DNA of 64,000 nt from an uncultured virus (IMG/VR IMGVR_UViG_2860841867_000002) (Duplodnaviria; Heunggongvirae; Uroviricota; Caudoviricetes): positions 1-64,000 of IMG/VR virus record IMGVR_UViG_2860841867_000002; one strand, given 5' to 3'. Below are positions 2,886 through 55,498 of the stretch, in pieces. The position numbers were made by a program, and so were the translations under genes. The notes under the pieces were generated by a model. It was not told where the DNA came from and did not search any database. It worked only from the letters and a program-made list of their open reading frames with translations. Every line of letters starts with the position of its first letter. The first letter of the stretch is position 1.

Positions 2886-4400
2886 ATGAATCATAATTTT
2901 ATACTTATTGATTTCTTAGACGAAGTTAGATCCGGAATGGCTCTCGCAACCGAAAGACGTGCTAATATGGTTGCTACAGAGCGGGGAGAAGTCTCGTTTC
3001 TAACTCTTAATTTTCAAAATAACCACGAACACATTATCTCTAGAATGAAAGAAAGAGGGAGACTCGCGGAGAATATCAAGGTATACAATTTTCACGAGCA
3101 CTTCTACAACTTACCTGAGCGCATCTCTAATAAGGATAAATCTCCTGAGCTTGGGTTGGTCGAGGATGGGCTTTCTCACTATATAGATGAACGCCCTAAT
3201 ACAAATGGCTACAGGTACTATGATAAGGACGGGAACTATGTAAAGTACAAACTATTCGACGAAGAAATGAGACTTAAGTTCATTGATTATCGTGACCTTA
3301 ATCTCCAACGTACCCATAGAGTTGAGTATGATCTTAACGGCAGAAAGAGACGTGAGATTAGATACAACCTTCAGAACAACAAACCTGCGTTTGAAAAATA
3401 TTATGATATTAATGAGGAATGTTATTTATCTGTTTGGGTAAATTCTTCAGGGAAGAGAACGAAGTGTGTTATTCACGCTGGAATTAACAAAGCATTTAAT
3501 CATATAACTGATGCGCACGTCTATTGGGTTGAGTCTGTTCTAAAAGATTACACGAATCCGTTTTTAATGCTTGATGAATTGGGATTACTAGATGTTTTCC
3601 GTAAGGTGAGCAACGATTGTTATAAAATCGTAACCTTGCATAATACGCATCTTGATAAGCCACACGTTAAAGGATCTCCATATAGGCGCGTGTATAAAGA
3701 GATATTTGATCACAGGGATGAATTCGATGCGATTGTTTTCTTAACTGAAGAACAAAAAAGGGATGTCGAGGAAGACTACGGTAAGGATAAACGATTTGTT
3801 GTAGTTCCTCATGCGGTCACATTGGACAAAGATGAAATACTAGATGAATCAATTGAGCGAAATCCTAAATCAGCCATAACACTAGCTCGCTTGGAGGACA
3901 GCAAAAATATCGCGGACGGAATTCGAGCTTTCCGTATTGTAGTCGATACTATTAAAGAAGCCGAGTATCACATCTTTGGTTATGGAAAAGAGAAAGAAAA
4001 TTTACAAGCGTTAATAAAGGAGTTAAAACTCGAAAACAATGTTTATATTCACGGGTTCACCCATAACGTTAATAGAGAAATCCAAAAACATGGATTGTCT
4101 ATTATGACGTCCCGTTTTGAAGGCTTTTGTCTAGTGATCATGGAGAGTCTAGCCAACCAAACGCCAGTAGTTAGTTACCGGACGAAGTACGGACCGGAAA
4201 CACTTATCAGAGACGGAAAAGACGGATACCTAACAGAATACAATAACTACGAAGAAGTTGCGGAAAAAGTAATTGAATTAATGTTGGACAGCAAGAAACA
4301 GAAAAAGTTCGCGAAAAATTCATTGGATGTGTACAAGCGGTTTAGTTATGCTCGTTATAAGAAGAATTGGTTAGGCCTGTTTAAACAACTTTCGAAGTAA
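2886..4400 (+). CDS. GT4 glycosyltransferase, TagE/GtfA-like
   Basis: ARLEDSKN, TSRFEGFCLVIMESLA, YGPETLIRDGKDGYL; N-terminal beta-meander-like extension; AT-rich and opposite in orientation to the late operon. Confidence 0.85.
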   Translation: MNHNFILIDFLDEVRSGMALATERRANMVATERGEVSFLTLNFQNNHEHIISRMKERGRLAENIKVYNFHEHFYNLPERISNKDKSPELGLVEDGLSHYIDERPNTNGYRYYDKDGNYVKYKLFDEEMRLKFIDYRDLNLQRTHRVEYDLNGRKRREIRYNLQNNKPAFEKYYDINEECYLSVWVNSSGKRTKCVIHAGINKAFNHITDAHVYWVESVLKDYTNPFLMLDELGLLDVFRKVSNDCYKIVTLHNTHLDKPHVKGSPYRRVYKEIFDHRDEFDAIVFLTEEQKRDVEEDYGKDKRFVVVPHAVTLDKDEILDESIERNPKSAITLARLEDSKNIADGIRAFRIVVDTIKEAEYHIFGYGKEKENLQALIKELKLENNVYIHGFTHNVNREIQKHGLSIMTSRFEGFCLVIMESLANQTPVVSYRTKYGPETLIRDGKDGYLTEYNNYEEVAEKVIELMLDSKKQKKFAKNSLDVYKRFSYARYKKNWLGLFKQLSK

Positions 4401-12818: not shown

Positions 12819-15800
12819 TTATCGATCACCCCACAACAATTTATTGAATCCGATGTTCTGTGCTTGGCCTTTTTCTACACTGTCTGTAAGCGCCGTCGAG
12901 TCGACAATAACATTCGGATCCTTACGTAGAATACCTGTTAGCAACGTGTTGGTTTGGCGCAGTAATGCGTTTTGTCCCCGTAGCAAAGCAATTTCCTCCT
13001 CGTTACTTCCACCAGACGGATCCATACCGATTTCTCTTCCTGCCGCCGTCCATAATTGCTGCGCCCGCTGCCTATGGTTTTGCAACGGAATAATCGCTTC
13101 TGGACCTTCTTCCGCAATCCAGGCGAGCTGCTTTTGCGTCACAATATCGCCGATTTTATATCCTTTGTACGGACCGCCTTTCGCCATCGATCTGATGCCT
13201 GGAGTATTAAACGGGCTTCCATAGCGAGATTTGATATAACGGATAGCCGCAACCGCGTTGTGGACCGGATTCATGATGTCGCCCATGCCCGGAAGCTTAT
13301 ACGCATCAAACGTTGGTTTGATCGTTTGCATAAGACCCATTGACGGTGTACCACGTCTCCAGTTCGAGTCCCAACGGTTAATTGTAGACGGACCCGTACG
13401 GCCTCCGGACTCTTTCATCGCAATTGTAACGAGTGGGGCGAACCAAGAAGCTGGCGAATTCGTTTTAGCCATCGCCGCCCGAATCCATTGCTTAACGTTT
13501 CCGGACGCTTTATCGCCACTTCCGAAAGCTCCACCAAAGTCAGCGAGTTTCTTTTTCATAAAGCTGACGGCGGAATCTTTGACTTTACCGAAGGCACCTT
13601 TCGCAATTGTCCCGAAAGCTCCGGAAATATCCGGCAACTTCAGTCCGAGACTTTCTATCGTTTTAGCGATAAGTTTTGACGGATTGCTAACGTATTCCCA
13701 CGCATCAAAAGCGAAATCCTTAACACTGTTTACGGCAGCTTTACCCGCATCAACAGCGGATTTTCCAACATCGATGGCAGAATCGAAGAAACTTTTGTTC
13801 TTCGTACCTTTCCTGAATGCGGGGATTCCAGAAGATAGTACCTCGCGTGTTTCTTTATGCGGCAAGACTTGCGTCCCCTTTGGCAGATTAAAGAGCGTGT
13901 CGGTTCCAGGGCTTAAACCTGTGAAACCGGAAGGTGTACGGAATAACTCCGGACCGCCTCCATCTCCTAAGATAGCAAGACCGCCTTTGTGCCCACCTGC
14001 TGGCGTACCTTTAGCGAACCTCGGAATTTCGAGTTTAGGGATCCGGAGTTTTTTATCCACCCCGAATGTATCGAGTAGCTTGTTAATCCCTTTTTGCGTC
14101 AAGCCATTGATAATTCCTTCAAGTCCGCCGATCATCGTATTTCCTAGAGATTTAACTCCGGATAGGGCTCTGCCGGCCATATTTTTTATTCCGTCACCAA
14201 TTTCACCTGGTAGCGCCTTTGCTCCCTCGATCATGTTGTGGAACGTGTCGGTCGCAAATTTCCCGATTGATTTGAACAAACCTACTGTTCTGTCCTTCAA
14301 GAAATTCCAGGCGCTAACTGCCCCATTGACCAATCCAGAAAAGAGTGTGAGGACTACATTTACAGCTCCTCGGATTACTGCGGTGATTATGTTCCAAATA
14401 CTTTTCAGAATCCCAAGTATCGCATTCCAGACCGCACTCCAATTGCCTTTTAGTAGCGCAGTGAAAAACTTAACTACGTTGATCACGATATTGAGTGCGT
14501 TTTGGATTACACTAACAACTACAGGGAACACGACTTGCACAATTTTCAGCACGAATTGGATCGCTGGGATAAGAACAGTACGAATTATAGTTGCCACTAA
14601 CTGTAAAACCGTTACGGCTACCTGCATGGCAATCTGAATGATGCTTGTTACAACAGGGAAAACAGCCTGAACAACTTGCAGAATGAGTGGTAGCAAGGTT
14701 ACAGCCAACTGACTCAAGATTTGAGCAACTGATGTTAACAGATTAGCGACGATAGGCACTACAGACTGAATTATCGCCAGTACTGGCGGGAAAATTGATT
14801 GAAACGCCTGTAGCAAAATTGGTAACAAGGTAGTCGCAATAGTGGTTACTACTGGAACAAGGGACTGAATCAACTGTAGCACTATTGGAAGTACAGACGA
14901 TACGATTTGTAAAATCAGCGGAAGCAAAGATGTAAATGCTTGAGCTAACATTGGCAACAGTACCGATGCGACTTGCATAATAAGTTGTGCGAATTGGACT
15001 TGGAAAGATGCCCATGTCTGAATCAACTGTCCAACCAAAGTTACAACTTGCGGTAGAAACGCCGCGAAAGTCACGCCTAATTCCTGGATTACCGGCGCTA
15101 TCTGAACCGCAATTTCAGAGAATGATTGACCTAACGTTGTCCACAATTCCCCAAAAGCATTTCCGAGCTCAGTAAACGTTGGTCCTAACGAACTAATGCT
15201 GGACATTATGACTTCGCCCGTTTTCGCGAATTCAGGTGCAAGCTCTGCTGCAATATCCGAAAAATACCCGATAAATTGATTTATGATTGGCTGAATCGCA
15301 ACTACAACGTTACCGATCACCGACATAATCTGTGACCAGGCGTTCTGTACAGACGCTCTAAACTCTTCGTTTGTTTGATATAGTCGGAATAAAAAACCGG
15401 CTAGACTAACAAGAGAGGTGATGACAAAACCAATAGATCCGGAAACTCCGGCCATCCCCAACCCTAACGCAGTCACGGTTGGCGCTAAAATCGATATGAT
15501 TCCGCCCACGCTCGAAAACGCAGCCCTTAAATTCTGAATGAATAAATCTACTGCGGAGCCGGCTCTATCCGCTAGTCCGGAACCGAATCTATCTGCGATC
15601 GACGATCCGATGTTTGAAACGAATTCACCTATCGAATTAACCACGTTAGCAAATCGCTGTCGTACTGCCGGAACAATAACGGAGACGCCGTCAGCAAATC
15701 TCTCCCACCCGGCTACCGAAGCTTTTTGTATAAAATTAAATGTGTCGCCTACCACTGCCGAAATACTGCTGAATGCCGTAACCGTCACGTTTCTGACTGA

Positions 15801-18119
15801 TTCAAAAGCGCCGTTTACAAAATTACGGAATTTCTCAGACTTTTTGTACGCGATTACAAGAGCTGCTCCTACCGCGGTTATGCCAAGAACCGTAAGGCCG
15901 ATCGGACTCGTAAGTGCTCCGAATGCAACACCTATAACCTTTATAAACTTTTCACTTTTTATCAAACCTTTTAAAAGACCGCTTACAGTCCCGAGTCCAG
16001 ATATCATTTGGCCGACACCTAGCATTAAAAAACCTAACGCTGCAACAATTCCCATAATTACAGTTGTAACCGCTAAAGAAATAGCTACGAACGATTGCAT
16101 TCCTTTAGATAGACCATTAAACCAGTCCGTCGCGCTCTGAAGCACAGAAACGAGTGCAGAGATAGCTGGGGTTAGCGCATTACCAAATGAAATTTGTGCA
16201 GTTTCTACGGCACCGGAAAGCTCTTCGATTTTACCCTTAAGGTTATTCATTTTTTCAGCAGCAACATTATCGGCCTTAATTTTATCCATTGCAGCCGCCA
16301 TTTTATCGAAACCTTTACTTCCTTCCTTACCAAGAATCAACGCGCCTCGAATAGCGTCACTACCGAAAATATTGTAAAGGGCTTCTTGTTTATCTTTTGC
16401 GGACAAACCGTCAAGCGCCTTAGAAAGCTCTCCAGATATTTCTGTCATACTCCGAATATTTCCGTTAGCATCAAAAAATTTATTGTCCATGATTCCAAGA
16501 CTCCGAGCGGCTTTGTCAAAGGCCTTCTCGAACTTTTCGGTCCCTTGCTTCGCTCCTGTCGTCTTTTCAACATACTTGTTAAGTGCCTCGTATATATCGC
16601 CGATATTTTTACTCGCTGGTTTGAAGCCTTTATCAGCCATACGTTTAAAAGCTTCGGAAGTATCAAGGGTGACTAGACCAAGATCGTGCATTGTCTCGTA
16701 CTGAGCTTTTGTCATAGGTACTAAACGACTTAACATCGTTTTCATCGAAGTACCTGCATCTGATCCTTTAAGTCCATTCTGTGCGAAGAGGGCTAGTGTA
16801 GTAGCCGTGTCTTTAAAAGACAGTCCCATACCGGCTGCTACTGCGGATGTCATTTGAAGACCATACCGCATCTCTCCAACCGTTGTTGCAGAAGAGTTTG
16901 CGGCCCCTGCGAGAATATCTGCTGCCTGTGCAACGCTAATGTTATCGTCTTTAAACGCGTTCAGTGCAGTCGACGCAATTTCCGCCGCATCCGCAAGCTC
17001 TAATTCTCCCGCTGTCGCAAGCGATAGCGCGCCCTTAAGTGCGCCATTCAGTATGTCCTTCGTAGATACACCGGCCTTTACGAGTTCTTCCATACCTTGC
17101 GCAGCTTCAAGCGCACTGTATTTCGTATCAGCACCGAGTTTAATGGCTAATTCCGTAAGGGCAGCGCTGTATTGGTTGGCTTCTGCCGGATTCATGACCG
17201 CCTTCACGCTCGACATCTGCTGCTCGAAGTCCATCGCTTTTTTCGTTGAAACCGCAAGACCTCCGCCTAAAGCCGCTGTCGCTACGCCGAATGACATCGC
17301 GATTTCAGATCCCGCAGATTGCATTCGACCCCCAACGTCCCGCATCCGGTCCCCGACTTCACCCATCCGGTTGCCGAGCTCGTTCCAACGGCCCGTGTTC
17401 GATTGGATCTGTCGGTTCGTTGCGGCCAGTTCGGCTTGAGTTGTTCGAAGTTGTGCCGTCGCTTGATTCATTTGAACGCGTAATTCTTGAGTCGCCTGAG
17501 CATCTTCGCCTTTTGCGCGTTTAGCTTCGAGATACAGTCGGCGGATGTTTTTAAGACGCTGCTCTTGTAACGAGATCGATTGCGTAAGATGTTCCGATTT
17601 TTGTCGTAGTTGCTCGGTAGTAGAACCGAAATCCCTTATGCCGGCTGATGCAGCCTCAAATGACGAATCCAATACGCGTAACTTCGTATCGATCGTCTTA
17701 ATGCTTGCGCTAATTTTAGCGCCTAATTGACTGAAGCCGTTGCTCTGCTCTCGCATTTTACGGTTAAGAAGGTCTAATTGATCCTCAGTTTTCCGAACCG
17801 CTGCAACAGTTCGATTATACTGGGCGAGGAGCTTTTCAGATTGTGCCGAATACCTTCCCGTCGTCCTTACGCTCTCTTCATATTGCCGCTTCAACTCGTT
17901 AAGTTTCGCCTTTTGCGTTTGTAAAGTCCGATTTAATATGTCGGTCTTATTACGCAATGAATCCAGGCTGTTATCGAATCGGCCAGCTCCAGCCATTGCC
18001 GCTTTGAATTCCGAGTTTAGTACCTTTAATTTTCTGTTAACGTCCTGTAGGCCGCGAGAGAAGTCAATGTTGTCTAGACCTAAACTAACGCGTATAGATC
18101 CGACTGATTCAGTCGCCAA
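12819..18119 (-). CDS. Tape measure protein with C-terminal lytic transglycosylase (SLT) domain
   Basis: 1766 aa; TP901-type core (TKYSALEAAQGM); ESGG...GLMQ...AAIRYIKSRYG. Confidence 0.96.
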   Translation of the reverse strand: MATESVGSIRVSLGLDNIDFSRGLQDVNRKLKVLNSEFKAAMAGAGRFDNSLDSLRNKTDILNRTLQTQKAKLNELKRQYEESVRTTGRYSAQSEKLLAQYNRTVAAVRKTEDQLDLLNRKMREQSNGFSQLGAKISASIKTIDTKLRVLDSSFEAASAGIRDFGSTTEQLRQKSEHLTQSISLQEQRLKNIRRLYLEAKRAKGEDAQATQELRVQMNQATAQLRTTQAELAATNRQIQSNTGRWNELGNRMGEVGDRMRDVGGRMQSAGSEIAMSFGVATAALGGGLAVSTKKAMDFEQQMSSVKAVMNPAEANQYSAALTELAIKLGADTKYSALEAAQGMEELVKAGVSTKDILNGALKGALSLATAGELELADAAEIASTALNAFKDDNISVAQAADILAGAANSSATTVGEMRYGLQMTSAVAAGMGLSFKDTATTLALFAQNGLKGSDAGTSMKTMLSRLVPMTKAQYETMHDLGLVTLDTSEAFKRMADKGFKPASKNIGDIYEALNKYVEKTTGAKQGTEKFEKAFDKAARSLGIMDNKFFDANGNIRSMTEISGELSKALDGLSAKDKQEALYNIFGSDAIRGALILGKEGSKGFDKMAAAMDKIKADNVAAEKMNNLKGKIEELSGAVETAQISFGNALTPAISALVSVLQSATDWFNGLSKGMQSFVAISLAVTTVIMGIVAALGFLMLGVGQMISGLGTVSGLLKGLIKSEKFIKVIGVAFGALTSPIGLTVLGITAVGAALVIAYKKSEKFRNFVNGAFESVRNVTVTAFSSISAVVGDTFNFIQKASVAGWERFADGVSVIVPAVRQRFANVVNSIGEFVSNIGSSIADRFGSGLADRAGSAVDLFIQNLRAAFSSVGGIISILAPTVTALGLGMAGVSGSIGFVITSLVSLAGFLFRLYQTNEEFRASVQNAWSQIMSVIGNVVVAIQPIINQFIGYFSDIAAELAPEFAKTGEVIMSSISSLGPTFTELGNAFGELWTTLGQSFSEIAVQIAPVIQELGVTFAAFLPQVVTLVGQLIQTWASFQVQFAQLIMQVASVLLPMLAQAFTSLLPLILQIVSSVLPIVLQLIQSLVPVVTTIATTLLPILLQAFQSIFPPVLAIIQSVVPIVANLLTSVAQILSQLAVTLLPLILQVVQAVFPVVTSIIQIAMQVAVTVLQLVATIIRTVLIPAIQFVLKIVQVVFPVVVSVIQNALNIVINVVKFFTALLKGNWSAVWNAILGILKSIWNIITAVIRGAVNVVLTLFSGLVNGAVSAWNFLKDRTVGLFKSIGKFATDTFHNMIEGAKALPGEIGDGIKNMAGRALSGVKSLGNTMIGGLEGIINGLTQKGINKLLDTFGVDKKLRIPKLEIPRFAKGTPAGGHKGGLAILGDGGGPELFRTPSGFTGLSPGTDTLFNLPKGTQVLPHKETREVLSSGIPAFRKGTKNKSFFDSAIDVGKSAVDAGKAAVNSVKDFAFDAWEYVSNPSKLIAKTIESLGLKLPDISGAFGTIAKGAFGKVKDSAVSFMKKKLADFGGAFGSGDKASGNVKQWIRAAMAKTNSPASWFAPLVTIAMKESGGRTGPSTINRWDSNWRRGTPSMGLMQTIKPTFDAYKLPGMGDIMNPVHNAVAAIRYIKSRYGSPFNTPGIRSMAKGGPYKGYKIGDIVTQKQLAWIAEEGPEAIIPLQNHRQRAQQLWTAAGREIGMDPSGGSNEEEIALLRGQNALLRQTNTLLTGILRKDPNVIVDSTALTDSVEKGQAQNIGFNKLLWGDR

Positions 18120-24647: not shown

Positions 24648-26441
24648 CTAACCGTTTAATAGATCGCTAATTGAGATAAATCCGACGCTTCCGCCCTCAA
24701 CCGGCTTCGTCATATCGAGATAAACCTGTGTATGTGCATTAAGAAACGCCGCAAACCCATCGATTTTCCGGTACCTCGTTTGTTTTGTCGGCAACCAGTT
24801 ACCGTTCCGGTCTTCGACAAGTTTGACGTTGTTTAGATACCATGTGAAAAGCTTGTTCTCGTTATAAACGACGTTCCCGTCAAGCAGTAATTCTTTGATG
24901 TGTTTTAACGGATCACTCAGCGTAATATAACCCTGACGCACGACCTCCGTTTGGAATCCGTAGTTTTGAAGATCGTGAACCAACCGCATTGCATTCGCCG
25001 GGTCAAACGTGATCTTATCGATCTGATATTTGCGCGACATTTCAACGAACCAGTCGTAAACGTACTCATATTCCACGTATTCGCCCGGAATAATCGTCAA
25101 ATATCCGTCATCTTGCCACTCTCGGTACGGTATTTTCTCGTTATCTTTCTCGACTTTTGCCGCCGGAACCCATGAATGAGACAAAACAAAAACGCGATTA
25201 TCCGGCAAAATAAATTCCAGACACGCGCTCGTAAAGTCTTCCGTTTGTGATAAGTCGAAGCCGCCGATACATCTCATGCCGCGCAGTTCTTCGATATTAT
25301 GATATTTGTTATTACGTTTTATAACTTCGAAGTCTACAAAGCTTTGCTCGCCGTTATCCACGAACATATTAAACTGCTTCGTAATCCAGTCGTTTCTCTC
25401 TTGAGGGATGTCGCGATCCGACCGGTAATCCTGAACCATTGTCGGAAGCTTCATCGTTACCCCCATATTCGGGTTCGCTTTTATCCATTCAGTCGGCTGA
25501 TCTATCTCCTTTTCGTCGTCTAATTCCGCAATAAAGTAGAATTTTCGGTCCTGTTCATTCGATCCTTCAAGAACATCGGAAGCAACTTCGTAATATTCAA
25601 CTAATGGGCCGTCTAAAACGTACCCTGCGGTCGTAATATAAATAACCATCGGCTGTCTCCGCGCAGACCAGGAGCGCTTGATTACGTTTATCAGCTTAAA
25701 TCCTTGGAACTCGTGTATCTCATCAAAAATGCCGAGGTGAGTATTAAGTCCGTCAAGCTTTTTACTATCGGATGCTCTCGGCTCAATACGACTCAAAGAC
25801 TTCATATCGAATATTCCTTTTTGGTTTTCCTTCATATTTCTCCGAAGTGCTGGCGACTTCTGAACCATCGCCCGGCTTTCATCGAAAAGTTCACCAGCCT
25901 GCTGCTTCGAGTTGGCTAAAACGTAAACACGCGCCCCCGGTTCGTTATCTTTTGATATCGCAAAGTTTGCTAATCCGCTAATCATCGTCGTTTTACCGTT
26001 TTTACGGCCAATAAAAACCAGGCCCTCGCGAAATCTCCGCAACCCGGTATCGCGATGCACCCACCCGTAGAGTGAGCCGATTACGAAATGTTGCCACGGC
26101 TGAAGCGTTAGGTTGGCGTAATCACCTTTTGACGGTTTGCAAAACTTTTCAATGAACCGAATTGGCCGGTGTCCTTTTTCGATATCAAATACGTAAGGAA
26201 ATTCGTCAGTACCAGCGCGCTCCAAGTCTCGCAGGTGACGTTTACACGCCAAAACATTTTTCCGACTTGCTTTAATTTCTCCCGCAACAACTTTCTCCGC
26301 GTAAAAGGTTGTAAGTAGATTTTCGGCCGGTTTTTCGCATATAAATCCGGCCATTTTTTGCGTTTTTAGCCAGTTTTCGAACCATTTTTCAAGCTCCGTA
26401 GGGCTAGAATTCGTCGTAATCGTCGTCATTTTCACCACCAC
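24648..26441 (-). CDS. terL: Terminase large subunit
   Basis: LQPWQ, GRKNGKT (Walker A), DEIH, ITTAG, GFDLS, KIDG. Confidence 0.96.
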   Translation of the reverse strand: MVVKMTTITTNSSPTELEKWFENWLKTQKMAGFICEKPAENLLTTFYAEKVVAGEIKASRKNVLACKRHLRDLERAGTDEFPYVFDIEKGHRPIRFIEKFCKPSKGDYANLTLQPWQHFVIGSLYGWVHRDTGLRRFREGLVFIGRKNGKTTMISGLANFAISKDNEPGARVYVLANSKQQAGELFDESRAMVQKSPALRRNMKENQKGIFDMKSLSRIEPRASDSKKLDGLNTHLGIFDEIHEFQGFKLINVIKRSWSARRQPMVIYITTAGYVLDGPLVEYYEVASDVLEGSNEQDRKFYFIAELDDEKEIDQPTEWIKANPNMGVTMKLPTMVQDYRSDRDIPQERNDWITKQFNMFVDNGEQSFVDFEVIKRNNKYHNIEELRGMRCIGGFDLSQTEDFTSACLEFILPDNRVFVLSHSWVPAAKVEKDNEKIPYREWQDDGYLTIIPGEYVEYEYVYDWFVEMSRKYQIDKITFDPANAMRLVHDLQNYGFQTEVVRQGYITLSDPLKHIKELLLDGNVVYNENKLFTWYLNNVKLVEDRNGNWLPTKQTRYRKIDGFAAFLNAHTQVYLDMTKPVEGGSVGFISISDLLNG

Positions 26442-26727
26442 CCGCGTTTAATTCTTTGCGCTGTGCCGGCGTAAGATCGAGCGATTTCAGAAGATTGTTT
26501 AACGTCGTCACCGTCTTCGTAAGCTCAATCGCTAACGGATTTTTGACAAGGTTCTCCGCGCCTGCTTTGTTCGTATGCCGCATCATTAAAGGGTTTTCGG
26601 CTACTTCCTTTTTTAGTCGGCGGTAAAACTTATGAGTGTCGACGTAGAGTTCGATCAGTTCTTCATCCGATTCTTTATACCTGTCTCCGAGATATTCCCG
26701 GATTTTTTTCGCTGTCGGTACCGCCAT
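26404..26727 (-). CDS. terS: Terminase small subunit (P27 family)
   Basis: VKNPL...LDLTPAQR; directly upstream of terL. Confidence 0.9.
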   Translation of the reverse strand: MAVPTAKKIREYLGDRYKESDEELIELYVDTHKFYRRLKKEVAENPLMMRHTNKAGAENLVKNPLAIELTKTVTTLNNLLKSLDLTPAQRKELNAGGGENDDDYDEF

Positions 26728-27185: not shown

Positions 27186-27352
27186 CGCCTTGCACCCGCC
27201 ATGAATCGCGTTAAGGTTAACGCTGGACCCAGTCGTATTAATCTAGGCTTACAGAACGGACGGCCTGCCAGTTGTATAAATCCAAGCTCATAGTCGCGTT
27301 CCTTTCGTTGCTCTCGTAGGTATCTATAACGCTGCTTACGTTCTCTATTCAT
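27182..27352 (-). CDS. Small basic hypothetical protein (56 aa)
   Basis: MNRERKQRYRY...MAGARR; overlaps both neighbours; below the track cutoff. Confidence 0.6.
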   Translation of the reverse strand: MNRERKQRYRYLREQRKERDYELGFIQLAGRPFCKPRLIRLGPALTLTRFMAGARR

Positions 27353-27587
27353 AAGCTCGTTCGCCTACCGCAAGTTCCTTCGTCTCTACAACCGGAGCGC
27401 CTGTGCTATCCTTAGTGTGTTTGATACGGTAATAAGTAGAGCCGCATTGGTCTGCGTCTTTAGTACGCCACTCGAAGTCTACCGCAATACGACCGGTAAT
27501 TTCTTCGCCTTTGTATATGACGCGTGGTATCGATTGTTCATCCGTGAGTTCTATCGTTAGTAAGTTCGGTTTAGGTTTGACCTCCAA
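27345..27587 (-). CDS. Hypothetical phage protein
   Basis: GGAGG RBS, operon context. Confidence 0.7.
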   Translation of the reverse strand: MEVKPKPNLLTIELTDEQSIPRVIYKGEEITGRIAVDFEWRTKDADQCGSTYYRIKHTKDSTGAPVVETKELAVGERAYE

Positions 27588-27589
27588 CG

Positions 27590-27907
27590 CTATCCCTCCG
27601 TTTCCTTCCGTTTATAGCGTACTTCTAATCCTCCATCGTCATTTACCGCAAAGATAAACTCGTTAGCTCCATCGTTCATTAGTCCGGATATGACGCTTTT
27701 CGTTGCCTCCCGTTCTTCTTCCGTACTGTATCCCGGAAGCTTTACCTTAACGTAATTCTCTCGCTTCGCTGTAGTAAACGTGATAGGCGTTACATAGCCG
27801 GTATAAGGCTTAGTAGATACGGACGTACTGCCGGACGTACTGCCGTACTTACTACGTATATACTCGACCGCATTAAGCGCAGCATTAATCGGATTAGCCA
27901 ACGTCAT
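27590..27907 (-). CDS. Hypothetical protein with N-terminus resembling the end of the TMP SLT domain
   Basis: AGGAGG RBS; NPINAALNAVEYIRSKYGS...PYTGY. Confidence 0.7.
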   Translation of the reverse strand: MTLANPINAALNAVEYIRSKYGSTSGSTSVSTKPYTGYVTPITFTTAKRENYVKVKLPGYSTEEEREATKSVISGLMNDGANEFIFAVNDDGGLEVRYKRKETEG

Positions 27908-28217: not shown

Positions 28218-28607
28218 TTATAACAGCTTGGATAGAACGTGATACCGATCCTTAATACTGAAGGTGCGTAGCATGCGTTCTATATACTCGTTATCTAAAC
28301 CGGTTGTTTCTTCTAGCTCGATCTTCATGCGCTCCACTTCGTGCTTACAATCGTAATGGCTCGGGAACTCCTCGGTATTCAATGCGCTTTTAGCAGCGTT
28401 ACACGGACGACAGAGTAGCTGGAGATTGTCGATGTCATCTGTACCACCACTCGCTTGCGGAATAATATGATCGATATTGTACGTTAGGCTTTCGTTACCG
28501 TTAGCTTCACGCTTACTAACGAGTCCTTCTACTCCGCAGTGAGCGCATTTCCTTGCGCTTAAATCAGCGAACTCTTCTCTCCTTTTATACGACCATTTTA
28601 ACGCCAC
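28218..28607 (-). CDS. HNH endonuclease
   Basis: CAHC...IDHIIP...GG...NLQLLCRPCN. Confidence 0.9.
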   Translation of the reverse strand: MALKWSYKRREEFADLSARKCAHCGVEGLVSKREANGNESLTYNIDHIIPQASGGTDDIDNLQLLCRPCNAAKSALNTEEFPSHYDCKHEVERMKIELEETTGLDNEYIERMLRTFSIKDRYHVLSKLL

Positions 28608-29156: not shown

Positions 29157-29527
29157 CCGCCCCCCTCCTCTACGTAAGTAACTTCGTATGCATTATCGAT
29201 AACCCACCGAAACATTGGATCGTTTACAATCGGATTATCCGCGTAGCCCGGTAGCATAAATAGCGCAACGTATTCCGGATTTATGCCGTCCAGTACGTAA
29301 GGATTACGCGATACAAATTGCGTGTACTTATAGTTCGGATACCTCGTTTTCACACGTTTCCACATCGTTTTGGCTTCGCTAACGGTCCGTCCTACAACGA
29401 GAGCGCATCGCCATTTCTCTTTCGGTTTAGGGCCGTCGGACAGAGCGAAAAAGGCTTGGCGCAATTGATCGAGCTGTTCGTCGTATTCATCGCTGGCGGT
29501 AAGTTTAACGGTTATTTTACCGCTCAT
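29153..29527 (-). CDS. Hypothetical protein
   Basis: Translationally coupled to both neighbours. Confidence 0.7.
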   Translation of the reverse strand: MSGKITVKLTASDEYDEQLDQLRQAFFALSDGPKPKEKWRCALVVGRTVSEAKTMWKRVKTRYPNYKYTQFVSRNPYVLDGINPEYVALFMLPGYADNPIVNDPMFRWVIDNAYEVTYVEEGGG

Positions 29528-29787
29528 CAGCGCTCCCCCTTCCGGAAGATTTTCGTACTAGCCTCTTCGATCTTCTTACCGTCGACATAGACCGGAGGCG
29601 CAATATACTCCTCGCCGATATATAACCGCCCTGCCAGATGACCCTTCGCCTGTTCTTCCCGCAATTCAGCCAACGCCTTAGTCGCCGCCTTTGCCTCGCG
29701 TTGGACCGCCTTGAGTCCGGTTATCGCGTCGGATACATCCAAGTCGATTTTAATTTTGCCGATTGATTCGCGCTTTGATTCCGCCAT
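29527..29787 (-). CDS. Hypothetical protein resembling TMP termini
   Basis: AAGGAG RBS; ESIGKIKIDLDVSDAITGLKAVQREAK. Confidence 0.7.
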   Translation of the reverse strand: MAESKRESIGKIKIDLDVSDAITGLKAVQREAKAATKALAELREEQAKGHLAGRLYIGEEYIAPPVYVDGKKIEEASTKIFRKGER

Positions 29788-29899
29788 TCACATCGTCTCC
29801 TTTTTCGTTTCTTTATCGCCTGCGCACCGGAAGGCCCGTAGGCAACGCAAGCACAAAAAGAGCGACCCTTATTCGGAGCGCCCTCGTTCTGATTGCTTT

Positions 29900-33525: not shown

Positions 33526-33559
33526 AAAAAGGCCCGACTCGATTGAGTGGGCTATTTTT
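33526..33559. terminator. Bidirectional terminator
   Basis: AAAAAGGCCCGACTC-gatt-GAGTGGGCTATTTTT. Confidence 0.7.
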
Positions 33560-33866
33560 CTTCTGCATCTACAGACGAGCTTCCTATCTTATCACTCGCC
33601 GGATCATATAAACCGTCGAACTCTTTAGATTTATCACCGTTCAAATATCCTTCAACGGTGATAGCACCGGTTGGATCAATAAAGTAATCATCATAATAAG
33701 TAATAGTATCAATACCTTTGTACTCATTATGTAGATATTCAGTCATCTTAGTTTTCGCCTTCTCAAAAAGAACAGTTTCTTCTTTTTTCACATCATACTG
33801 ATGCTTCATAAACAACCCTCCACCTGCTATAATTAACAATAGTAGGATAATAATGTATTTTTTCAA
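33552..33866 (-). CDS. Membrane-anchored protein, DUF1433-like; candidate lipase immunity protein
   Basis: N-terminal TM; YL...YKGI..IT, IDPTGAITVEGYLNGD. Confidence 0.7.
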   Translation of the reverse strand: MKKYIIILLLLIIAGGGLFMKHQYDVKKEETVLFEKAKTKMTEYLHNEYKGIDTITYYDDYFIDPTGAITVEGYLNGDKSKEFDGLYDPASDKIGSSSVDAEEK

Positions 33867-33923
33867 ATGAAATTCATTCCTTTCCTATTATTATTTTACA
33901 TTACACGGAAGGTGTTGTATATC

Positions 33924-35363
33924 TTGAGTAAGAAGATTAAGAAGTCCAATCTTACGGATGAGACTTATTATCGTATAAGCCAACGTTCTTACAACTACGA
34001 TTATCTCAGAAAAAAATTAAAAAACAAAGAGTACATACGGATAAATTCATCTGTTTCCGGAGCCACCTACTGGTATGTTGATAAAATTAAAACAGACGAA
34101 GACACCGGGTTAGATGCGGCCGTTCTATCCCAGGCCGAAAATAAAAACGGCAAGTGGGTGAAATCCGACCACCCCAAAAACGTCGTTGTAGCTTTTGCGG
34201 GAACTGATCCGGGGAAGGACCCGTTAAGTGACGTAGAGCAAGCAGACATTAATCATATCGTCTTAGGAAACGATCCGAAAGATAAAACACAATATGTCGT
34301 CAAGAAAGATGCGAAAGATATGTCTAAGACGTTCGGTAGATATATTGGTTCGATGGAACAAACTGCCATGCTTGAGTCCGGTGATTATAAATTAATTACA
34401 AAAACATCGCAAATCGATCAAGCCGATCAACTTGTGCGGGAAGTTAAACAAAAGTATAAAGGCACCTCGACAGTTATTTCAACCACCGGACACTCGCTCG
34501 GCGGCGCAGAGGCTGAATACAGCGCGGTCAACAATGATATCTATGCCGTCGCGTTTAATAGCCCCTCAATCGTTCACCTGCATTCTGATGAAAAACAGAA
34601 AGAAATTAATAACGGAGATTATAACTCTTATGTAAAATCTATCATTAATCCGGATGATATGGTCGGTGCCGGTTGGTGGGACGAATTCGATCGCCACAAT
34701 GGGACTACCATCTACACAAAAGACCCTTCTATTGCAACGGCTAATCGCGAAGAAAGACTTGACGGCAATAAACTCCAACAGGTTGGAAGAAACCTTCTGT
34801 ATTTCGCTAATACACTAATCTTTCAAAATCCGGATACACACGGCCTCAACAAAGGCAACTTTACCTTCGACGAAAACGGCAACGTTCAAAATATAGAGGG
34901 CGATGAACTCGTTTATGACAAAAATTTAAAAGCGATGCTCCCACCGGAAGTTGCCTCCGGAAGTGGCGCAATTAAAGTAACACCCGAAGTTGCCAAGCAG
35001 CTCGCGCAAAAAGTAAATGCGATCATCGATGACTTGCGGACGATGAAACGGGAAGCCGAAAACGCTTATCAGGAACACGACGCCGAGATCAACGACCTGA
35101 AGCACGATACCTACCGTCAGGTCGGCCACGGTTTATACGACAAGCTGACACTCGAGGATGTAAACAATACGCTGAAAAACCTGGCGCAGTCGTTTGACAA
35201 AAAAGGCAATCCGCTATTTTACGATGTTCATGCCGAAAAAGCGTACATCGCCTCATTAAAAAATACGATTTCAGATTTAGAAGACATCAGCGGGTACCTG
35301 GCGCAGATTGCAAAAGATTTTAAATCGAAAGATAAAATGCTGGCAAATTGGCTTAAACTTTAG
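33924..35363 (+). CDS. Lipase-domain protein with C-terminal helical (WXG/LXG-like) region; candidate T7SS toxin
   Basis: VAFAGT, TGHSLGG, FNSP, DMVG, H; then IKVTPE... helices ending DFKSKD; TTG at 33924 has RBS (track start 33867). Confidence 0.8.
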   Translation: MSKKIKKSNLTDETYYRISQRSYNYDYLRKKLKNKEYIRINSSVSGATYWYVDKIKTDEDTGLDAAVLSQAENKNGKWVKSDHPKNVVVAFAGTDPGKDPLSDVEQADINHIVLGNDPKDKTQYVVKKDAKDMSKTFGRYIGSMEQTAMLESGDYKLITKTSQIDQADQLVREVKQKYKGTSTVISTTGHSLGGAEAEYSAVNNDIYAVAFNSPSIVHLHSDEKQKEINNGDYNSYVKSIINPDDMVGAGWWDEFDRHNGTTIYTKDPSIATANREERLDGNKLQQVGRNLLYFANTLIFQNPDTHGLNKGNFTFDENGNVQNIEGDELVYDKNLKAMLPPEVASGSGAIKVTPEVAKQLAQKVNAIIDDLRTMKREAENAYQEHDAEINDLKHDTYRQVGHGLYDKLTLEDVNNTLKNLAQSFDKKGNPLFYDVHAEKAYIASLKNTISDLEDISGYLAQIAKDFKSKDKMLANWLKL

Positions 35364-43280: not shown

Positions 43281-45380
43281 TTAAACCACGCATGACAGGC
43301 AACCTTCCTGCCCCGTATCTTTAGTCCGCGCATAATACAGCGTCTTGATCCCTTTGTGATGTGCGTATAGGTCAATTCGGTTCAGATCGCGTGTCGTCAT
43401 CGTATCCTTCAGGAACAGCGTAAATGAGATGCCTTGATCGACGTGCTGCTGAATTGTCGCAATCATATCGACGACTTTAAACATATCCATGTCGTACGCT
43501 TCCTTATAGAAGAACCAATTCTGCGGCGATAGTCCCGGCATCGGATAATACGTCTTCGAATTGCCGTACGTACGCTCTTCGATTCGCTCCATAATCGGCA
43601 TGACCGACGCTGTAGCCGACTGCACATACGAAATAGATCCCGTCGGTGCGATCGCTAGTCTATACGAATGATAGAGTCCGTGTTTCCGTACGTTATCCTC
43701 CAGCCGAACCCAATCGATGCGTTCCGGAATTTCAACGCCTTCAAACAGCTTCGCGACCTTCTCCGTTTTAGGACGAAAATCTCCCGCGACGTACTTATCG
43801 AAGTAGCTGCCGTCCGCATACGTTGATCCTTCGAATCCCTCGAACGTGCTGCCGGTTTCCTTCGCAAGCTCCATCGACCGCACCAGCGACCAATAATTAA
43901 CGAGCGCAAAGAATACGTTAGCGAAGTCGCGAGCCTCTTCCGATTCATAAGCGATCCTATTCTGCGCAAGATATCCGTGTAGATTCATCGCGCCAAGTCC
44001 GATCGAACGCATCTGACGGTTGGCCTTAGCGACTGCCGGCGCGTTCTTGATATTCGTTGATTCCGATACGACCGTCAGCGAATCGACTGCGAGCTTAACC
44101 GTTTGCTCGATCGACTTATTCGCCATGACGTTCGCGATGTTGAGCGATCCGAGGTTGCACGAAATGTCTAGTCCAATTACGTCCTCTTCGCCGTAGTCGG
44201 TGTACTCCGAAACTTTGGACGCCTGAAGTACTTCGCTACAGAGATTCGAAAATTTCACCTTCGAAATGTGATTCAGCGCATGAGCCGCGTTGACGTTATC
44301 TTCGAACATAATGTACGGGTAGCCCGACTCAGACCGTAGAATCGCGAGCTTTTCGAGTAGCTGCCGCGGATTAATCTTTTCCTTACGCACCGCCGGATTC
44401 TCGACGAGCTTGTCGTACATTTCTCCGATATCCATTTCATCAAGGTGCTCGCCGTATTCCTTATAGACCGTATGCGGATAGAAAACGTATGCGTCACGGT
44501 CTTCGCGAGCCAATTCGATAAACTTATCCGGAATGACGACGCCGATCGATAGCGTCTTGACCCTTACGTCTTCATCTGCGTTAATCTTTTTGGTATCGAG
44601 GAAATCGTTGATATCGCGATGGAACACGTTCAAATATGCTGCTCCTGCCCCCGCTCTTGCGCCTTGCTGATCTGCATAGCGGAAGGCATTATCGAGGAGT
44701 TTCATAACTCCAACGACGCCCTTCGTTACGTTCTCGATTCCTTTGATCGATTCACCTTTCGCTCGCAACTTCGATAAATTCAAACTTACGCCTCCGCCCA
44801 TTTTCGAAAGTTGCATCGCTGTTCCGATCGCCATTTGAATATCGTTTAAGGAATCGTTCACTTCGAGAAGGAAACACGATACGAGTTCGCCGCGTCGCTT
44901 CCGCCCGGCATTCAAAAACGTTGGTGTAGCCGGCTGGTATTCCTGACGGATCATCATTTCCGCAAACTCGATCGCCTTGGCCGCGTCCCCTTTTGCGAAG
45001 AATAGCGCACAGATGGCGATTCGATCTTCGTAGCGTTCGAGGATCTTCTTCTTATCGTTCGTCTTGAGCGCGTAATCGTTGTAAAACTTGAACGCACTCA
45101 TAAACGAAGGGAAACGGAACTTTTTCGCGTAGGCTGCCTTGTAGACCGCTTTTATTTCATCGAATGTATACGGCTCGAAGACTTCGCGTTCGTAATAGTC
45201 GTTCTCGATCAGATAATCGAGCTTTTCGCGCAGATCGTGGAAAAATACCGTATTCTGATTCACGTAATCTATGAAATAACTGCGGACGGCTTCGGCATCC
45301 TTTTCGAATTGAAAGCCGCCGTTCTTCCGTATCATAATTTCGTTGTTAAGTTCGATATACTTCGCATGCTTATTCGTCAA
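43281..45380 (-). CDS. nrdE: Class Ib ribonucleotide reductase alpha subunit
   Basis: PATPTFLN, SCF, SNLCSE, APTGS, TLYY, C-terminal CLSC; uninterrupted. Confidence 0.97.
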   Translation of the reverse strand: MTNKHAKYIELNNEIMIRKNGGFQFEKDAEAVRSYFIDYVNQNTVFFHDLREKLDYLIENDYYEREVFEPYTFDEIKAVYKAAYAKKFRFPSFMSAFKFYNDYALKTNDKKKILERYEDRIAICALFFAKGDAAKAIEFAEMMIRQEYQPATPTFLNAGRKRRGELVSCFLLEVNDSLNDIQMAIGTAMQLSKMGGGVSLNLSKLRAKGESIKGIENVTKGVVGVMKLLDNAFRYADQQGARAGAGAAYLNVFHRDINDFLDTKKINADEDVRVKTLSIGVVIPDKFIELAREDRDAYVFYPHTVYKEYGEHLDEMDIGEMYDKLVENPAVRKEKINPRQLLEKLAILRSESGYPYIMFEDNVNAAHALNHISKVKFSNLCSEVLQASKVSEYTDYGEEDVIGLDISCNLGSLNIANVMANKSIEQTVKLAVDSLTVVSESTNIKNAPAVAKANRQMRSIGLGAMNLHGYLAQNRIAYESEEARDFANVFFALVNYWSLVRSMELAKETGSTFEGFEGSTYADGSYFDKYVAGDFRPKTEKVAKLFEGVEIPERIDWVRLEDNVRKHGLYHSYRLAIAPTGSISYVQSATASVMPIMERIEERTYGNSKTYYPMPGLSPQNWFFYKEAYDMDMFKVVDMIATIQQHVDQGISFTLFLKDTMTTRDLNRIDLYAHHKGIKTLYYARTKDTGQEGCLSCVV

Positions 45381-48523: not shown

Positions 48524-50827
48524 TTAATCGTCTCCCTTCGTTTTAAACCACTCTTCCACGGGAACTCCTTCGCCCCATCTTCGCATCACTTCGATATCTG
48601 TTCCGTTAGGTACAACGTCTCCCCAACGATATGAATTAAGCATGATATCGCGAATGTCTTGCGCTTCCTCCCACGTAAAATCCTCCGGAACTTCGAATAT
48701 CAATTCGTCATGTACCGTTGACCACAGCGCCCAGCCCGGTTTGTTAGCGCAATATTCATGAGCCTTAATCATCGTGACCTTCGTTTGTATAGACGACGAT
48801 CCTTGAACGCGGGCATTTGTCGCCTGCCTCAAAGCACGATTGATCCGCGAGTTATGTTTCCTGGCGTCCTCATATTTCGGATCATTCCATTTTCCATACG
48901 GAATAGGTTTTCGAGGTAATTTAGCGTCCGGAAGCCGTCGTTTTCGCGCCTTTAGATCAGCCCAAACGTATCCGTTTTTTCGCACAAACTCCTCGTTTTC
49001 TTTTAGCCAAGCCGATAACTTCGGCATACTTCCGAATAGCTCACCCTTAAACTTTGTCGCCTCTTTTTTATTAACGCCTAGCATATCCGCAAGAGAATAG
49101 TCACTCATCCCATAAAGTGTCGCTAACCACACGACCTTCATTTGCTTACGCTCCTTAGTGTCTGAGCCATCGGCGTTTTTATAGACTTCCTCGTACGGAC
49201 GCTTATAGAAGTTTGATGCCATCATAGCGTAAGGATCGCGCTCCTCTAAAAACGCGTTTATCAGTACCGGCTCTCCGGATAAATAAGCCACACACCGAAT
49301 CTCCTGCGCTTTAAAGTCGGCACCCAGCAACACTTTTCCGGGAGGAGGGCTAAACATCGGTCGGGCTTCTTGAGGCTGATTCTGTACGTTAAAGCCTTGA
49401 TCTGTTTTATCCTCATCATCCTTGCCGGAGCTGAATCTTCCCGTTACGGTTCCCATCGGATTAAAGCGCGAATGCCAACGCTTAGTTGTCGGATTTTGCT
49501 TCAATGGCAGAGTTTCAATGTAGGTACCGGAGAGCTTCGTAATTTTCTTGTACTCCAACAACTTTGCAATGACTTCGTGGTCGCCTTTTAGCGGCTTTAA
49601 TGTTTTCTTTGCGTCCATGTTCGGAAGCTCTTTGCCGATCGCCTTCGAAAGTGCAGGGCGCATCTGTTGGGTTGAGTTTAGATTTAACGGACCATCGCCT
49701 TCATGGAACGGAGTCAGCTCCGTAACTAATTCCGACCGCAACTCTTCCGCACGCTTATGCAGTTTTTCTCCGTATTCCTTTGCGAAATCCAAGTCGAGGA
49801 TATATCCGTTAGCCTCTAAATCGACAATTACATATAGCAACGGAATCTCAACGGTTTGGTAATACTCCAAAATCGTAGGCATTTTTTCCATGTGTTGACG
49901 TTGAAATTTGTACAGCTTCCACGTTAATTCCGTATCTTTAGCTGCGTAAACTAGCGCGATGTCTAATGGCACTTCTTTGAATTGCGCGTCCCGACCAAAC
50001 AATGCGTCGAACGTATCTGCCGGCGTTTTTAGATATTTTGGCGCCAAGTCTTTTAATTTAAATGAACCGGCACCACCCAATGTGCGATCACCTTCGTTTT
50101 CATTTAACATGTGCATCGCGGTCATCGTATCCCAAACGACGCCTTTCAGATCGAATCCATGTCGGCGGACCATCGCAATATCGAATATCGCGTTGTGCAG
50201 GACTTTTCCGATCGACTCATCGTTAAATACCGGCGCCAATCCTTCAAGCACGTATTCGCGACTCAGTTGCTCGCAATCTACGTGATCAACCGGTATATAA
50301 ACGTGCCAGTCAGCGCTCGGAAGCGTGAGCGAAAGCCCGACGATAGCATCCGTATATACATCAACGCCGGTCGTTTCGGTATCCACTGCGATAATTTCTT
50401 CGCTACTTAACGCCTCAATTAAAGCCTGGAATCGGGCTTCAGTCGTAATTAATTCGTAGTTTTCCGGTGTATTCTCGACCATCTTCCGCAAAGTTTCTTC
50501 GCGCTGGGATTCTTGAAGCGTCTTCCATAATCGCATGGCCTCCGCCTTGCTGAACGCCTTCGGGTTGCCGGCCTTGTTCACGCAGTCAGACGGATTCCTT
50601 GCGAGCTTGCCCGCTTCCATTGCCGCCTTGACTTCGTTTAAGCGTTGGCGGTCAGTTTCCGATAGCTTGCTCGCGAATATGCGGCGCCAGCTTTCCTCGA
50701 TCGGTTCGGCCTTTCTCGCCTTCTGCTTCCGCTTAGCTGTTTCAGCAACTTTTTCGTTCTTAACTTCGTCATTTTTAGGCGCCAAAGCGCTAAGATTCAA
50801 CCGCAGATTTTCGAGTTCCATTCGCAC
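48524..50827 (-). CDS. Family A DNA polymerase with 3'-5' exonuclease
   Basis: DTETTG, HNAIFD, YAAKD, TGRFSS, DFKAQEIR, LYG, VHDE. Confidence 0.96.
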   Translation of the reverse strand: MRMELENLRLNLSALAPKNDEVKNEKVAETAKRKQKARKAEPIEESWRRIFASKLSETDRQRLNEVKAAMEAGKLARNPSDCVNKAGNPKAFSKAEAMRLWKTLQESQREETLRKMVENTPENYELITTEARFQALIEALSSEEIIAVDTETTGVDVYTDAIVGLSLTLPSADWHVYIPVDHVDCEQLSREYVLEGLAPVFNDESIGKVLHNAIFDIAMVRRHGFDLKGVVWDTMTAMHMLNENEGDRTLGGAGSFKLKDLAPKYLKTPADTFDALFGRDAQFKEVPLDIALVYAAKDTELTWKLYKFQRQHMEKMPTILEYYQTVEIPLLYVIVDLEANGYILDLDFAKEYGEKLHKRAEELRSELVTELTPFHEGDGPLNLNSTQQMRPALSKAIGKELPNMDAKKTLKPLKGDHEVIAKLLEYKKITKLSGTYIETLPLKQNPTTKRWHSRFNPMGTVTGRFSSGKDDEDKTDQGFNVQNQPQEARPMFSPPPGKVLLGADFKAQEIRCVAYLSGEPVLINAFLEERDPYAMMASNFYKRPYEEVYKNADGSDTKERKQMKVVWLATLYGMSDYSLADMLGVNKKEATKFKGELFGSMPKLSAWLKENEEFVRKNGYVWADLKARKRRLPDAKLPRKPIPYGKWNDPKYEDARKHNSRINRALRQATNARVQGSSSIQTKVTMIKAHEYCANKPGWALWSTVHDELIFEVPEDFTWEEAQDIRDIMLNSYRWGDVVPNGTDIEVMRRWGEGVPVEEWFKTKGDD

Positions 50828-55375: not shown

Positions 55376-55498
55376 TCAACCACCTGGGACTGGGTCTGCT
55401 AACTGTGTTGTATTATCTTCTGTCACATTATTAATTAACGAACTTCCCGCTAGCAGAACCACCGCTGTAAATAAAACTGCCAATAAAATCTTTTTCAA
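55376..55498 (-). CDS. aimP: Arbitrium signalling pro-peptide AimP (40 aa)
   Basis: MKKILLAVLFTAVVLLAGSSLINNVTEDNTTQLADPVPGG; signal peptide plus short C-terminal peptide; GGGAGAGGA RBS; overlaps the aimR 3' end; not in track. Confidence 0.88.
   Translation of the reverse strand: MKKILLAVLFTAVVLLAGSSLINNVTEDNTTQLADPVPGG

Follow-up and report, generated by a model that had tools for sequence, protein, structure and literature searches.

A small gene upstream of the terminase in Bacillales prophages resembles the two ends of the tape measure protein and may encode a decoy for tail-directed defences

Why should a complete phage carry, in front of its terminase genes, a gene of 86 codons whose product recalls the two ends found in a tape measure protein (TMP)? 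The window (the whole 64,000-nt stretch analysed here) belongs to a 67.7-kb provirus record whose minus strand encodes a head module of HK97 type and a siphophage tail module. An earlier note on this DNA had singled out the 86-aa ORF as a reduced TMP with a strong ribosome-binding site, upstream of the terminase and more than 11 kb from the TMP gene. The ORF is real, running from 29787 to 29527 on the minus strand (the plus strand is closed there), and its surroundings were found as described: AAGGAG lies 9 nt 5′ of the ATG, terS follows 2.8 kb downstream on the same strand and the TMP start is 11.4 kb away. The note's caveat that a terminal G(D/E)R match with the TMP may simply reflect overlapping ribosome-binding sequence is right for those three residues, since the final G-E-R codons carry the ribosome-binding site of the next gene and the stop codon overlaps its ATG. 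The features referred to are as follows.

29527..29787, minus strand: putative mini TMP-ends protein, 86 aa (ORF call; PHROG 27153 and 4705 matches)
29797..29802, minus strand: ribosome-binding site AAGGAG, 9 nt before the ATG of the 86-aa ORF
29668..29763, minus strand: conserved core (residues 9-40), a strand-like stretch with alternating hydrophobic residues followed by an amphipathic helix; similar to the TMP N-terminal segment
29629..29733, minus strand: predicted helix, residues 19-53 (10-residue blocks 21-40 at pLDDT 96)
29530..29598, minus strand: swappable tail, residues 64-86; VYVDG motif and basic end, as in the TMP C-termini of related phages; the final three codons also serve as the next gene's ribosome-binding site
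12819..18119, minus strand: full TMP gene, 1766 aa (PF10145, SLT domain)
18000..18110, minus strand: TMP N-terminal segment, residues 4-40, resembled by the core of the 86-aa protein
13083..13175, minus strand: penultimate motif of the TMP (GPYKGY..., residues 1649-1679), of which copies occur in the tails of relatives P0019, P0023, P0025, P0030, P0034 and L056
19945..20367, minus strand: tail completion protein (TCP), HK97 gp10-like; candidate partner of TMP N-termini, a role described for phage 80alpha in the available part of its report
24648..26727, minus strand: terS and terL, which open the packaging module and lie downstream of the 86-aa gene

Elsewhere the window holds several genes of separate interest. 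An AimR-family arbitrium receptor scores above the NCBIfam cut-off in this 68-kb prophage (55431-56609, minus), and a class Ib ribonucleotide reductase NrdE and a family A DNA polymerase (43281-45380 and 48524-50827, minus) are found in what is a temperate phage. A GT4-type glycosyltransferase moron lies on the strand opposite the late genes (2886-4400, plus). The region 33552-35363 is possibly a moron related to type VII secretion: its 498-aa ORF has an SA1320-family match below the cut-off and, faintly, a WXG100-like stretch, and next to it is a divergent 104-aa ORF whose N-terminus is hydrophobic.

The likeness to the TMP start can be counted by hand: the alignment previously proposed between the 86-aa N-terminus and the start of the phage's own TMP does contain 12 identities in 29 columns. 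The local score, 44, is equalled or beaten in 0.02% of 20,000 shuffles, and no window among 1,701 others of 45 aa along that TMP attains it. Standard searches miss the link. Pairwise BLASTP against the own TMP did not report the N-end match and BLASTP against the window's ORFs placed it at E 0.94; a HMMER model of the core gave less than 3 bits for the best of 33 TMPs, and a TMP N-terminal model a median of 1.8 bits against the family. Profile-profile comparison (hhalign) of the core with 26 TMP N-termini, drawn like the other TMPs from database matches and from prophages carrying the family gene, gave a probability of 60.8%, above all 450 control windows in both directions. The best control was a TCP family, also with a strand-helix start (score 19.4 vs 21.6 for the core). 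With 40 non-redundant TMPs, taken from 95 with credible starts after 17 ids with truncated, miscalled or duplicate starts were left out, the probability was 87% (E 4e-6, 34 ungapped columns) and that of the TCP profile 2.6%. Moreover, when the core score matrix was slid along whole TMPs it peaked in the first 20 residues in 18/40 (0.9 expected), with the same ungapped register in 16 of those 18 top-ranked TMPs, compared with 8/40 for both the best of 1,075 control profiles and the best of 200 column shuffles. The 86-aa protein alone peaks at the TMP N-end in 14/40. The profile search against TMP N-termini proposed in the earlier note therefore does yield a match, at the level of the family, and the comparisons indicate that the core and the start of TMPs, a strand plus a helix, are related in sequence. 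The AlphaFold2 model of the 86-aa protein shows a confident helix (19-53) and little else; the strand is not called in the monomer. According to the available text on phage 80alpha, TMP residues 1-37 form a strand and a helix, and three copies bind one TCP (bioRxiv 10.1101/2024.12.10.627806). This arrangement is not universal, as T5 places its TCP elsewhere in the part of the account available (bioRxiv 10.1101/2024.10.16.618446).

The 90% database yielded 101 candidates, of which 91 are relatives of the 86-aa protein; at the 50% identity level there are 291 clusters, the best 150 of which have lengths of 56-301 aa. The protein itself matches PHROG 27153 (E 1.8e-22) and PHROG 4705 (E 2e-5); among 45 aligned family members, 45 match the former and 42 the latter (E<=1). 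Neither PHROG has a function or a TMP link attached in the libraries scanned. Named genomes belong to Bacillus, Paenibacillus, Oceanobacillus, Sporosarcina and related genera, apart from one metagenome bin that bears a different label. The gene is also found in cultured carriers, among them KLEB27-1, Lietuvens, PK3.6, MMB025 and the Halcyone group. Nearly all family proteins (227/228) have in common a core of some 35 residues, preceded by variable inserts and followed by variable tails. The shortest members (50-58 aa) are the core alone, with no tail.

The tails point to the other end of the TMP. From 302 tails of 20-110 aa, 168 non-redundant ones were compared with TMPs. The best match fell in the last 40 TMP residues for 36/168, vs 18/330 C-termini of other genes and 14/168 reversed tails, and the result was replicated on 31 other TMPs (28/168 tails vs 17/330 other C-termini and 10 reversed tails, p 5e-5). 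When tails were matched to the last 60 residues of 16 classes, 35/168 exceeded the control threshold with TMP C-ends and 5/168 with TMP middles. TMP N-ends took 16/168 (p 0.01) and the 13 other gene classes 7-12 each, none of them significant. TMP C-terminal peptides are, on these comparisons, the only identified structural class enriched among the exchangeable tails; 133/168 tails (79%) are of types without TMP likeness. The tail of P0058 is identical to a TMP end at 18/26 positions, and across 71 nt the DNA of the GPYKGY tail module and the 3′ portion of a TMP gene show 73% identity. In a family-wide blastn an in-frame TMP capture came second (E 0.003), the lowest E-value (1e-4, 40 nt) being that of an internal stretch, which was taken as chance. 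Judged by eye, several TMP-end types are represented among the TMP-like tails, a sign of repeated capture.

For the 86-aa protein itself the evidence at this end is mixed. The C-terminal echo of the phage's own TMP seen in the earlier note is not significant (p 0.09), whereas the longer tail does resemble the TMP ends of related phages G015 (p 2.5e-4) and G016 (0/20,000 shuffles), both picked from 41 TMPs. There is no DNA likeness between the 86-aa gene and the phage's own TMP gene. Its tail is a condensed relative of the GPYKGY-plus-VYLDG tails (0/5,000 shuffles with four relatives out of five, p 0.005 with the remaining one), and those tails match the TMP penultimate motif of the window phage. 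The VYxDG hairpin is a common motif. Taken alone, the 86-aa tail is borderline: just over the threshold in the 16-class test, just under it in the 31-TMP replication and 5/67 in the sister-clade TMP test described below. Across the family, tracking of the cognate TMP was not significant for either the N-end (p 0.056, 36 pairs) or the C-end (p 0.18, 42 pairs). In NF5, the available text describes the last 27 modelled TMP residues as anchored on Tal (PMC12917162).

Cereus-type prophages carry a sister homologue (hhalign 95.6%) in 35/55 loci, mostly of 71 aa and with a nearly fixed tail. This clade corresponds to PHROG 4705 and occurs in 62 catalogued phage records, including WBeta (wp52, annotated 'conserved phage protein') as well as Gamma, Cherry and Fah. 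The sister tail profile peaks in the last 45 residues of 23/67 TMPs (2.1 expected), a count reached by 0/930 controls (best 18), and the TMP-end-like tail is kept in 20/21 aligned members. The sister core picks only 5/40 TMP N-termini, which is within the control range; in PHROG scans, sister members weakly match several TMP profiles over the opening 60 profile positions (best E 0.001). Subtilis-clade VYLDG tails, chosen by that motif, peak at the end of 13/67 TMPs (3/930 controls).

Conservation was also examined through substitution rates, as the earlier note had suggested, and they show purifying selection on the core (median dN/dS of 0.20 in the 1,216/7,875 pairs with pS 0.05-0.6). A TMP reduced to its two ends, the note's central idea, thus stands at the family level, on the N-end profile match, the class-specific C-end match and purifying selection, although the match to the phage's own C-end is not significant. 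Taken together, these data support the mini-TMP anatomy, and indicate from sequence that it is real and widespread among Bacillales prophages.

The family gene is single-copy and lies on the same strand upstream of terL in 125/130 loci, at a median of 2.4 kb. This count covers loci with at least 7 kb downstream (20 shorter loci were dropped), some of which are the same prophage from two collections. Among loci with 7 kb upstream, it is present in 13/17 close relatives (absent from 4) and in 17/30 phages with the other terminase type. One relative lacking it is 98% complete, with a positive control run for the absence, and the first 300 aa of its TMP are identical. The gene is accessory and dispensable. 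In phages with the other terminase type (L005, L008, L021, L025, L057-L065 and others) an integrase-like gene of about 181 aa lies on the opposite strand between the family gene and terL.

Late expression of the 86-aa ORF is suggested by position alone. In PK3.6 the family gene is the first gene after a RinA-family activator. A promoter scan found 2 sites vs 2.7 expected. In L082, L083, L244, L246 and L249 a hairpin and T-run, seen by eye, stand just before the ribosome-binding site of the family gene and could mean that expression needs read-through. Contigs from four RNA runs cover 26-30 of 30 bins of the region, so they may be of DNA origin. The virion proteomics of PK3.6, in the part of the report available, detected only three proteins and is too shallow to count (PMC10459684); its supplement holds ORF tables only, for the terms searched.

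What, then, might such a protein do? Decoy and mimic counter-defences are a known kind. We tentatively favour, at somewhat less than even confidence, a late-made decoy for TMP-binding defences, derived from a TMP gene without its middle. On this proposal a tape measure gene would have lost its middle to give the 86-aa gene, and its position suggests that the protein would be produced from the start of the late operon, shortly ahead of the real TMP. The core may self-associate like the TMP N-terminal bundle and so display TMP-end peptides, which could soak up host- or prophage-encoded factors that, in the manner of Tab, bind TMP ends and block tail assembly. The phage's own tails would then be protected in hosts carrying such factors, and the swapping of tails would reflect changing defences. 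Consistent with this are the likeness at both ends, the sister tail, a gene that is accessory yet selected and a terminase-side position like that of anti-Tab. That cognate TMPs are not tracked is easier to reconcile with a decoy for generic features of TMPs than with a component tailored to the phage's own tail. Against it stand the majority of tails that are not TMP-like, the tailless members of 50-58 aa, the scores below 3 bits for the core HMM and the 5/40 for the sister core. The decoy reading is further strained by a core far more conserved than TMP N-termini, which is odd for the mimic of a variable target.

That conservation is better suited to the strongest of the alternatives, in our view rather unlikely, in which a TMP-derived core has a job of its own, such as binding a conserved host or phage protein or forming a generic oligomer, and the tails are recombination hitch-hikers of little matter in a mosaic region. 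Pairwise identity between phages is 62% for the core and 17.5% for the TMP starts of the same phages, the core is common to phages with non-homologous head modules, and tailless members exist. Moreover, most passengers (the variable modules on the core) are small unknown modules that are also present as neighbouring genes. The pre-terminase region does collect TMP pieces, as judged from a second TMP fragment in a nearby ORF.

27794..27907, minus strand: TMP-derived piece, the first 38 residues of the 105-aa ORF 27590-27907, matching TMP residues 1615-1654 (E 9e-5)

Random capture should, however, sample all gene ends, and only TMP C-ends, of several types, were enriched among the 16 classes; nor would hitch-hiking readily account for a TMP-end-like tail kept by nearly all aligned sister-clade members.

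The neighbourhood has features of its own. The TMP residues matched in the 105-aa ORF (minus) form the end of the SLT region; the cluster of this ORF occurs in 8 loci, and the ORF has a weak PHROG 11489 match. The domain of an 80-aa ORF (27345-27587, minus; PHROG 21294/18973/9442) is also found as a fused tail on several family members. A second HNH gene (28218-28607, minus) is cleanly absent from contigs of runs X1 and X12, which marks it as a mobile insert. The idea that the whole pre-terminase cluster is built of structural fragments was rejected (2/158 clusters vs 3/240 controls).

A broader version of the decoy reading, which we consider unlikely, would make the family a modular display platform. 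Onto an oligomerising core of TMP origin, encoded at the start of the late operon, phages would graft pieces of virion-assembly proteins watched by immunity, TMP C-ends most often but also a TerL nuclease domain and a portal motif, and defences would be titrated before the real proteins appear. A TerL nuclease domain is inserted before the core in L056:9386-10270 and P0100, and a portal C-terminal motif lies in the N-terminal insert of sister members L364:4698-5072, L363 and L379 (phrog_12, E 8e-5 for L364). P-loop-like passengers were considered as TerL ATPase pieces, and this was not confirmed.

A dominant-negative poison against rivals, its core replacing the TMP on TCP or its tail occupying Tal so that the tails of co-infecting or co-induced phages come out defective, is distinctly unlikely. 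The protein does appear to copy both TMP segments that bind partners in solved tails, as far as the available texts describe them (residues 1-37 on TCP in 80alpha, the last ~27 on Tal in NF5), and the tail of the 86-aa protein is a closer fit to TMP ends in related phages than to that of its own phage. However, the core resembles its own TMP N-end too, and the late-strand site before terL means that the protein would be made while the phage's own tail is being built; Tab, by contrast, is constitutive in the lysogen in the available account.

A little more doubtful still is a helper of the phage's own tail assembly, that is, a placeholder or chaperone holding TCP or Tal until the TMP comes, or a minor virion part. 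Late position, likeness to both partner-binding ends and the N-end cognate trend would suit such a role; the 98%-complete relative whose TMP start is identical does without the gene, cognate C-ends are not tracked, and the core is unchanged across very different TMPs and TCPs. A required role in the own tail is disfavoured, since the gene is dispensable and does not track its cognate TMP. Convergence on a common strand-plus-amphipathic-helix start, with only a few tails as true TMP captures, would explain why standard searches miss the link and why the best controls also start with strand and helix, but is highly improbable given the shared ungapped register, the failure of all 1,075 control profiles, the gulf between the TCP profile and the core, and two ends that point independently to the same protein.

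If the decoy reading is correct, a counter-defence has been made by miniaturising a structural protein, and TMP-end-targeting immunity is predicted in Bacillales, with the mini-TMP as bait with which to find it. If the protein is instead a poison, it would be a minimal tail-assembly inhibitor. Either way it could serve as a natural probe of the two TMP interfaces, with TCP and Tal, known from recent tail structures. An origin and a testable function are thereby offered for a widespread 'hypothetical' gene.

Searches for a known counterpart returned little. Pfam, NCBIfam, PADLOC and PDB sequence searches with the 86-aa protein gave no significant match; in the last, one solved TMP came up with its C-terminal region at E 4.3 and was not counted. 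In the ESM Atlas only unnamed clusters scored above 0.9, a TMP_2 cluster at 0.75 being a lead only, and fold searches of both models found nothing or generic helices (Z <5). PADLOC (2023 library) matched neither the 86-aa gene nor a defence partner beside it, and its scan of 18 proteins (17 from the window) gave only generic HNH matches and one weak mad1 match. No mini-TMP or TMP mimic was described in the literature searched, which covered few subscription papers, and no TMP-end-targeting defence in Bacillus was found there. The available text of the EVADES preprint (10.1101/2025.06.06.658234) never mentions the tape measure.

Among known systems, one of the closest is the TMP itself (PF10145; 80alpha gp56, NF5 gp15), with a strand-plus-helix start in the same register and C-termini that family tails resemble. 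However, TMPs have 500-1800 aa, and the 86-aa protein has no PF10145 or SLT, is dispensable and has a core more conserved than TMP starts. It was rejected as a TMP in its own right on its length, on having no Pfam match above cut-off and on a gene outside the tail module, where the TMP slot lies between the tail chaperones and Dit. In the available text, Avs18 senses a central TMP segment of ~130 residues (bioRxiv 10.64898/2026.01.04.697583); it is an unlikely target, and an Avs18 decoy is disfavoured, because that segment is missing from the 86-aa protein (and few tails match TMP middles). Tab, as far as its report is available, blocks tails via the TMP C-terminus and is constitutive in the lysogen (PMC10884400). 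Tab and Tai are, like the mini-TMP gene, prophage genes tied to tail assembly, but they are constitutive in lysogens as described, whereas the mini-TMP gene lies on the late strand and has no PADLOC match (2023 library). The same source describes anti-Tab as a late gene between terS and terL that protects TMP-dependent tail assembly, and the available part of a second describes a similar logic for Tai/Ati (PMC11364771). Anti-Tab (JBD26) and Ati (phi80) are small accessory late genes, and the mini-TMP gene likewise lies beside the terminase, a likeness of position only. Compared by their partial descriptions only, they differ in being said to bind a cognate defence protein encoded alongside, with no mimicry of TMPs described. 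Satellites offer a further parallel. SaPI Ccm is a satellite structural-protein homologue that interferes with helper assembly, and such homologues resemble the mini-TMP in that a virion protein homologue is reused outside its normal role. TMPs encoded by satellites are described in the available texts on EPIPs and PLE (10.64898/2025.12.02.691453; PMC13595925). Satellite homologues, however, reside in satellites and rebuild particles, whereas the mini-TMP is a fragment-sized gene in complete phages.
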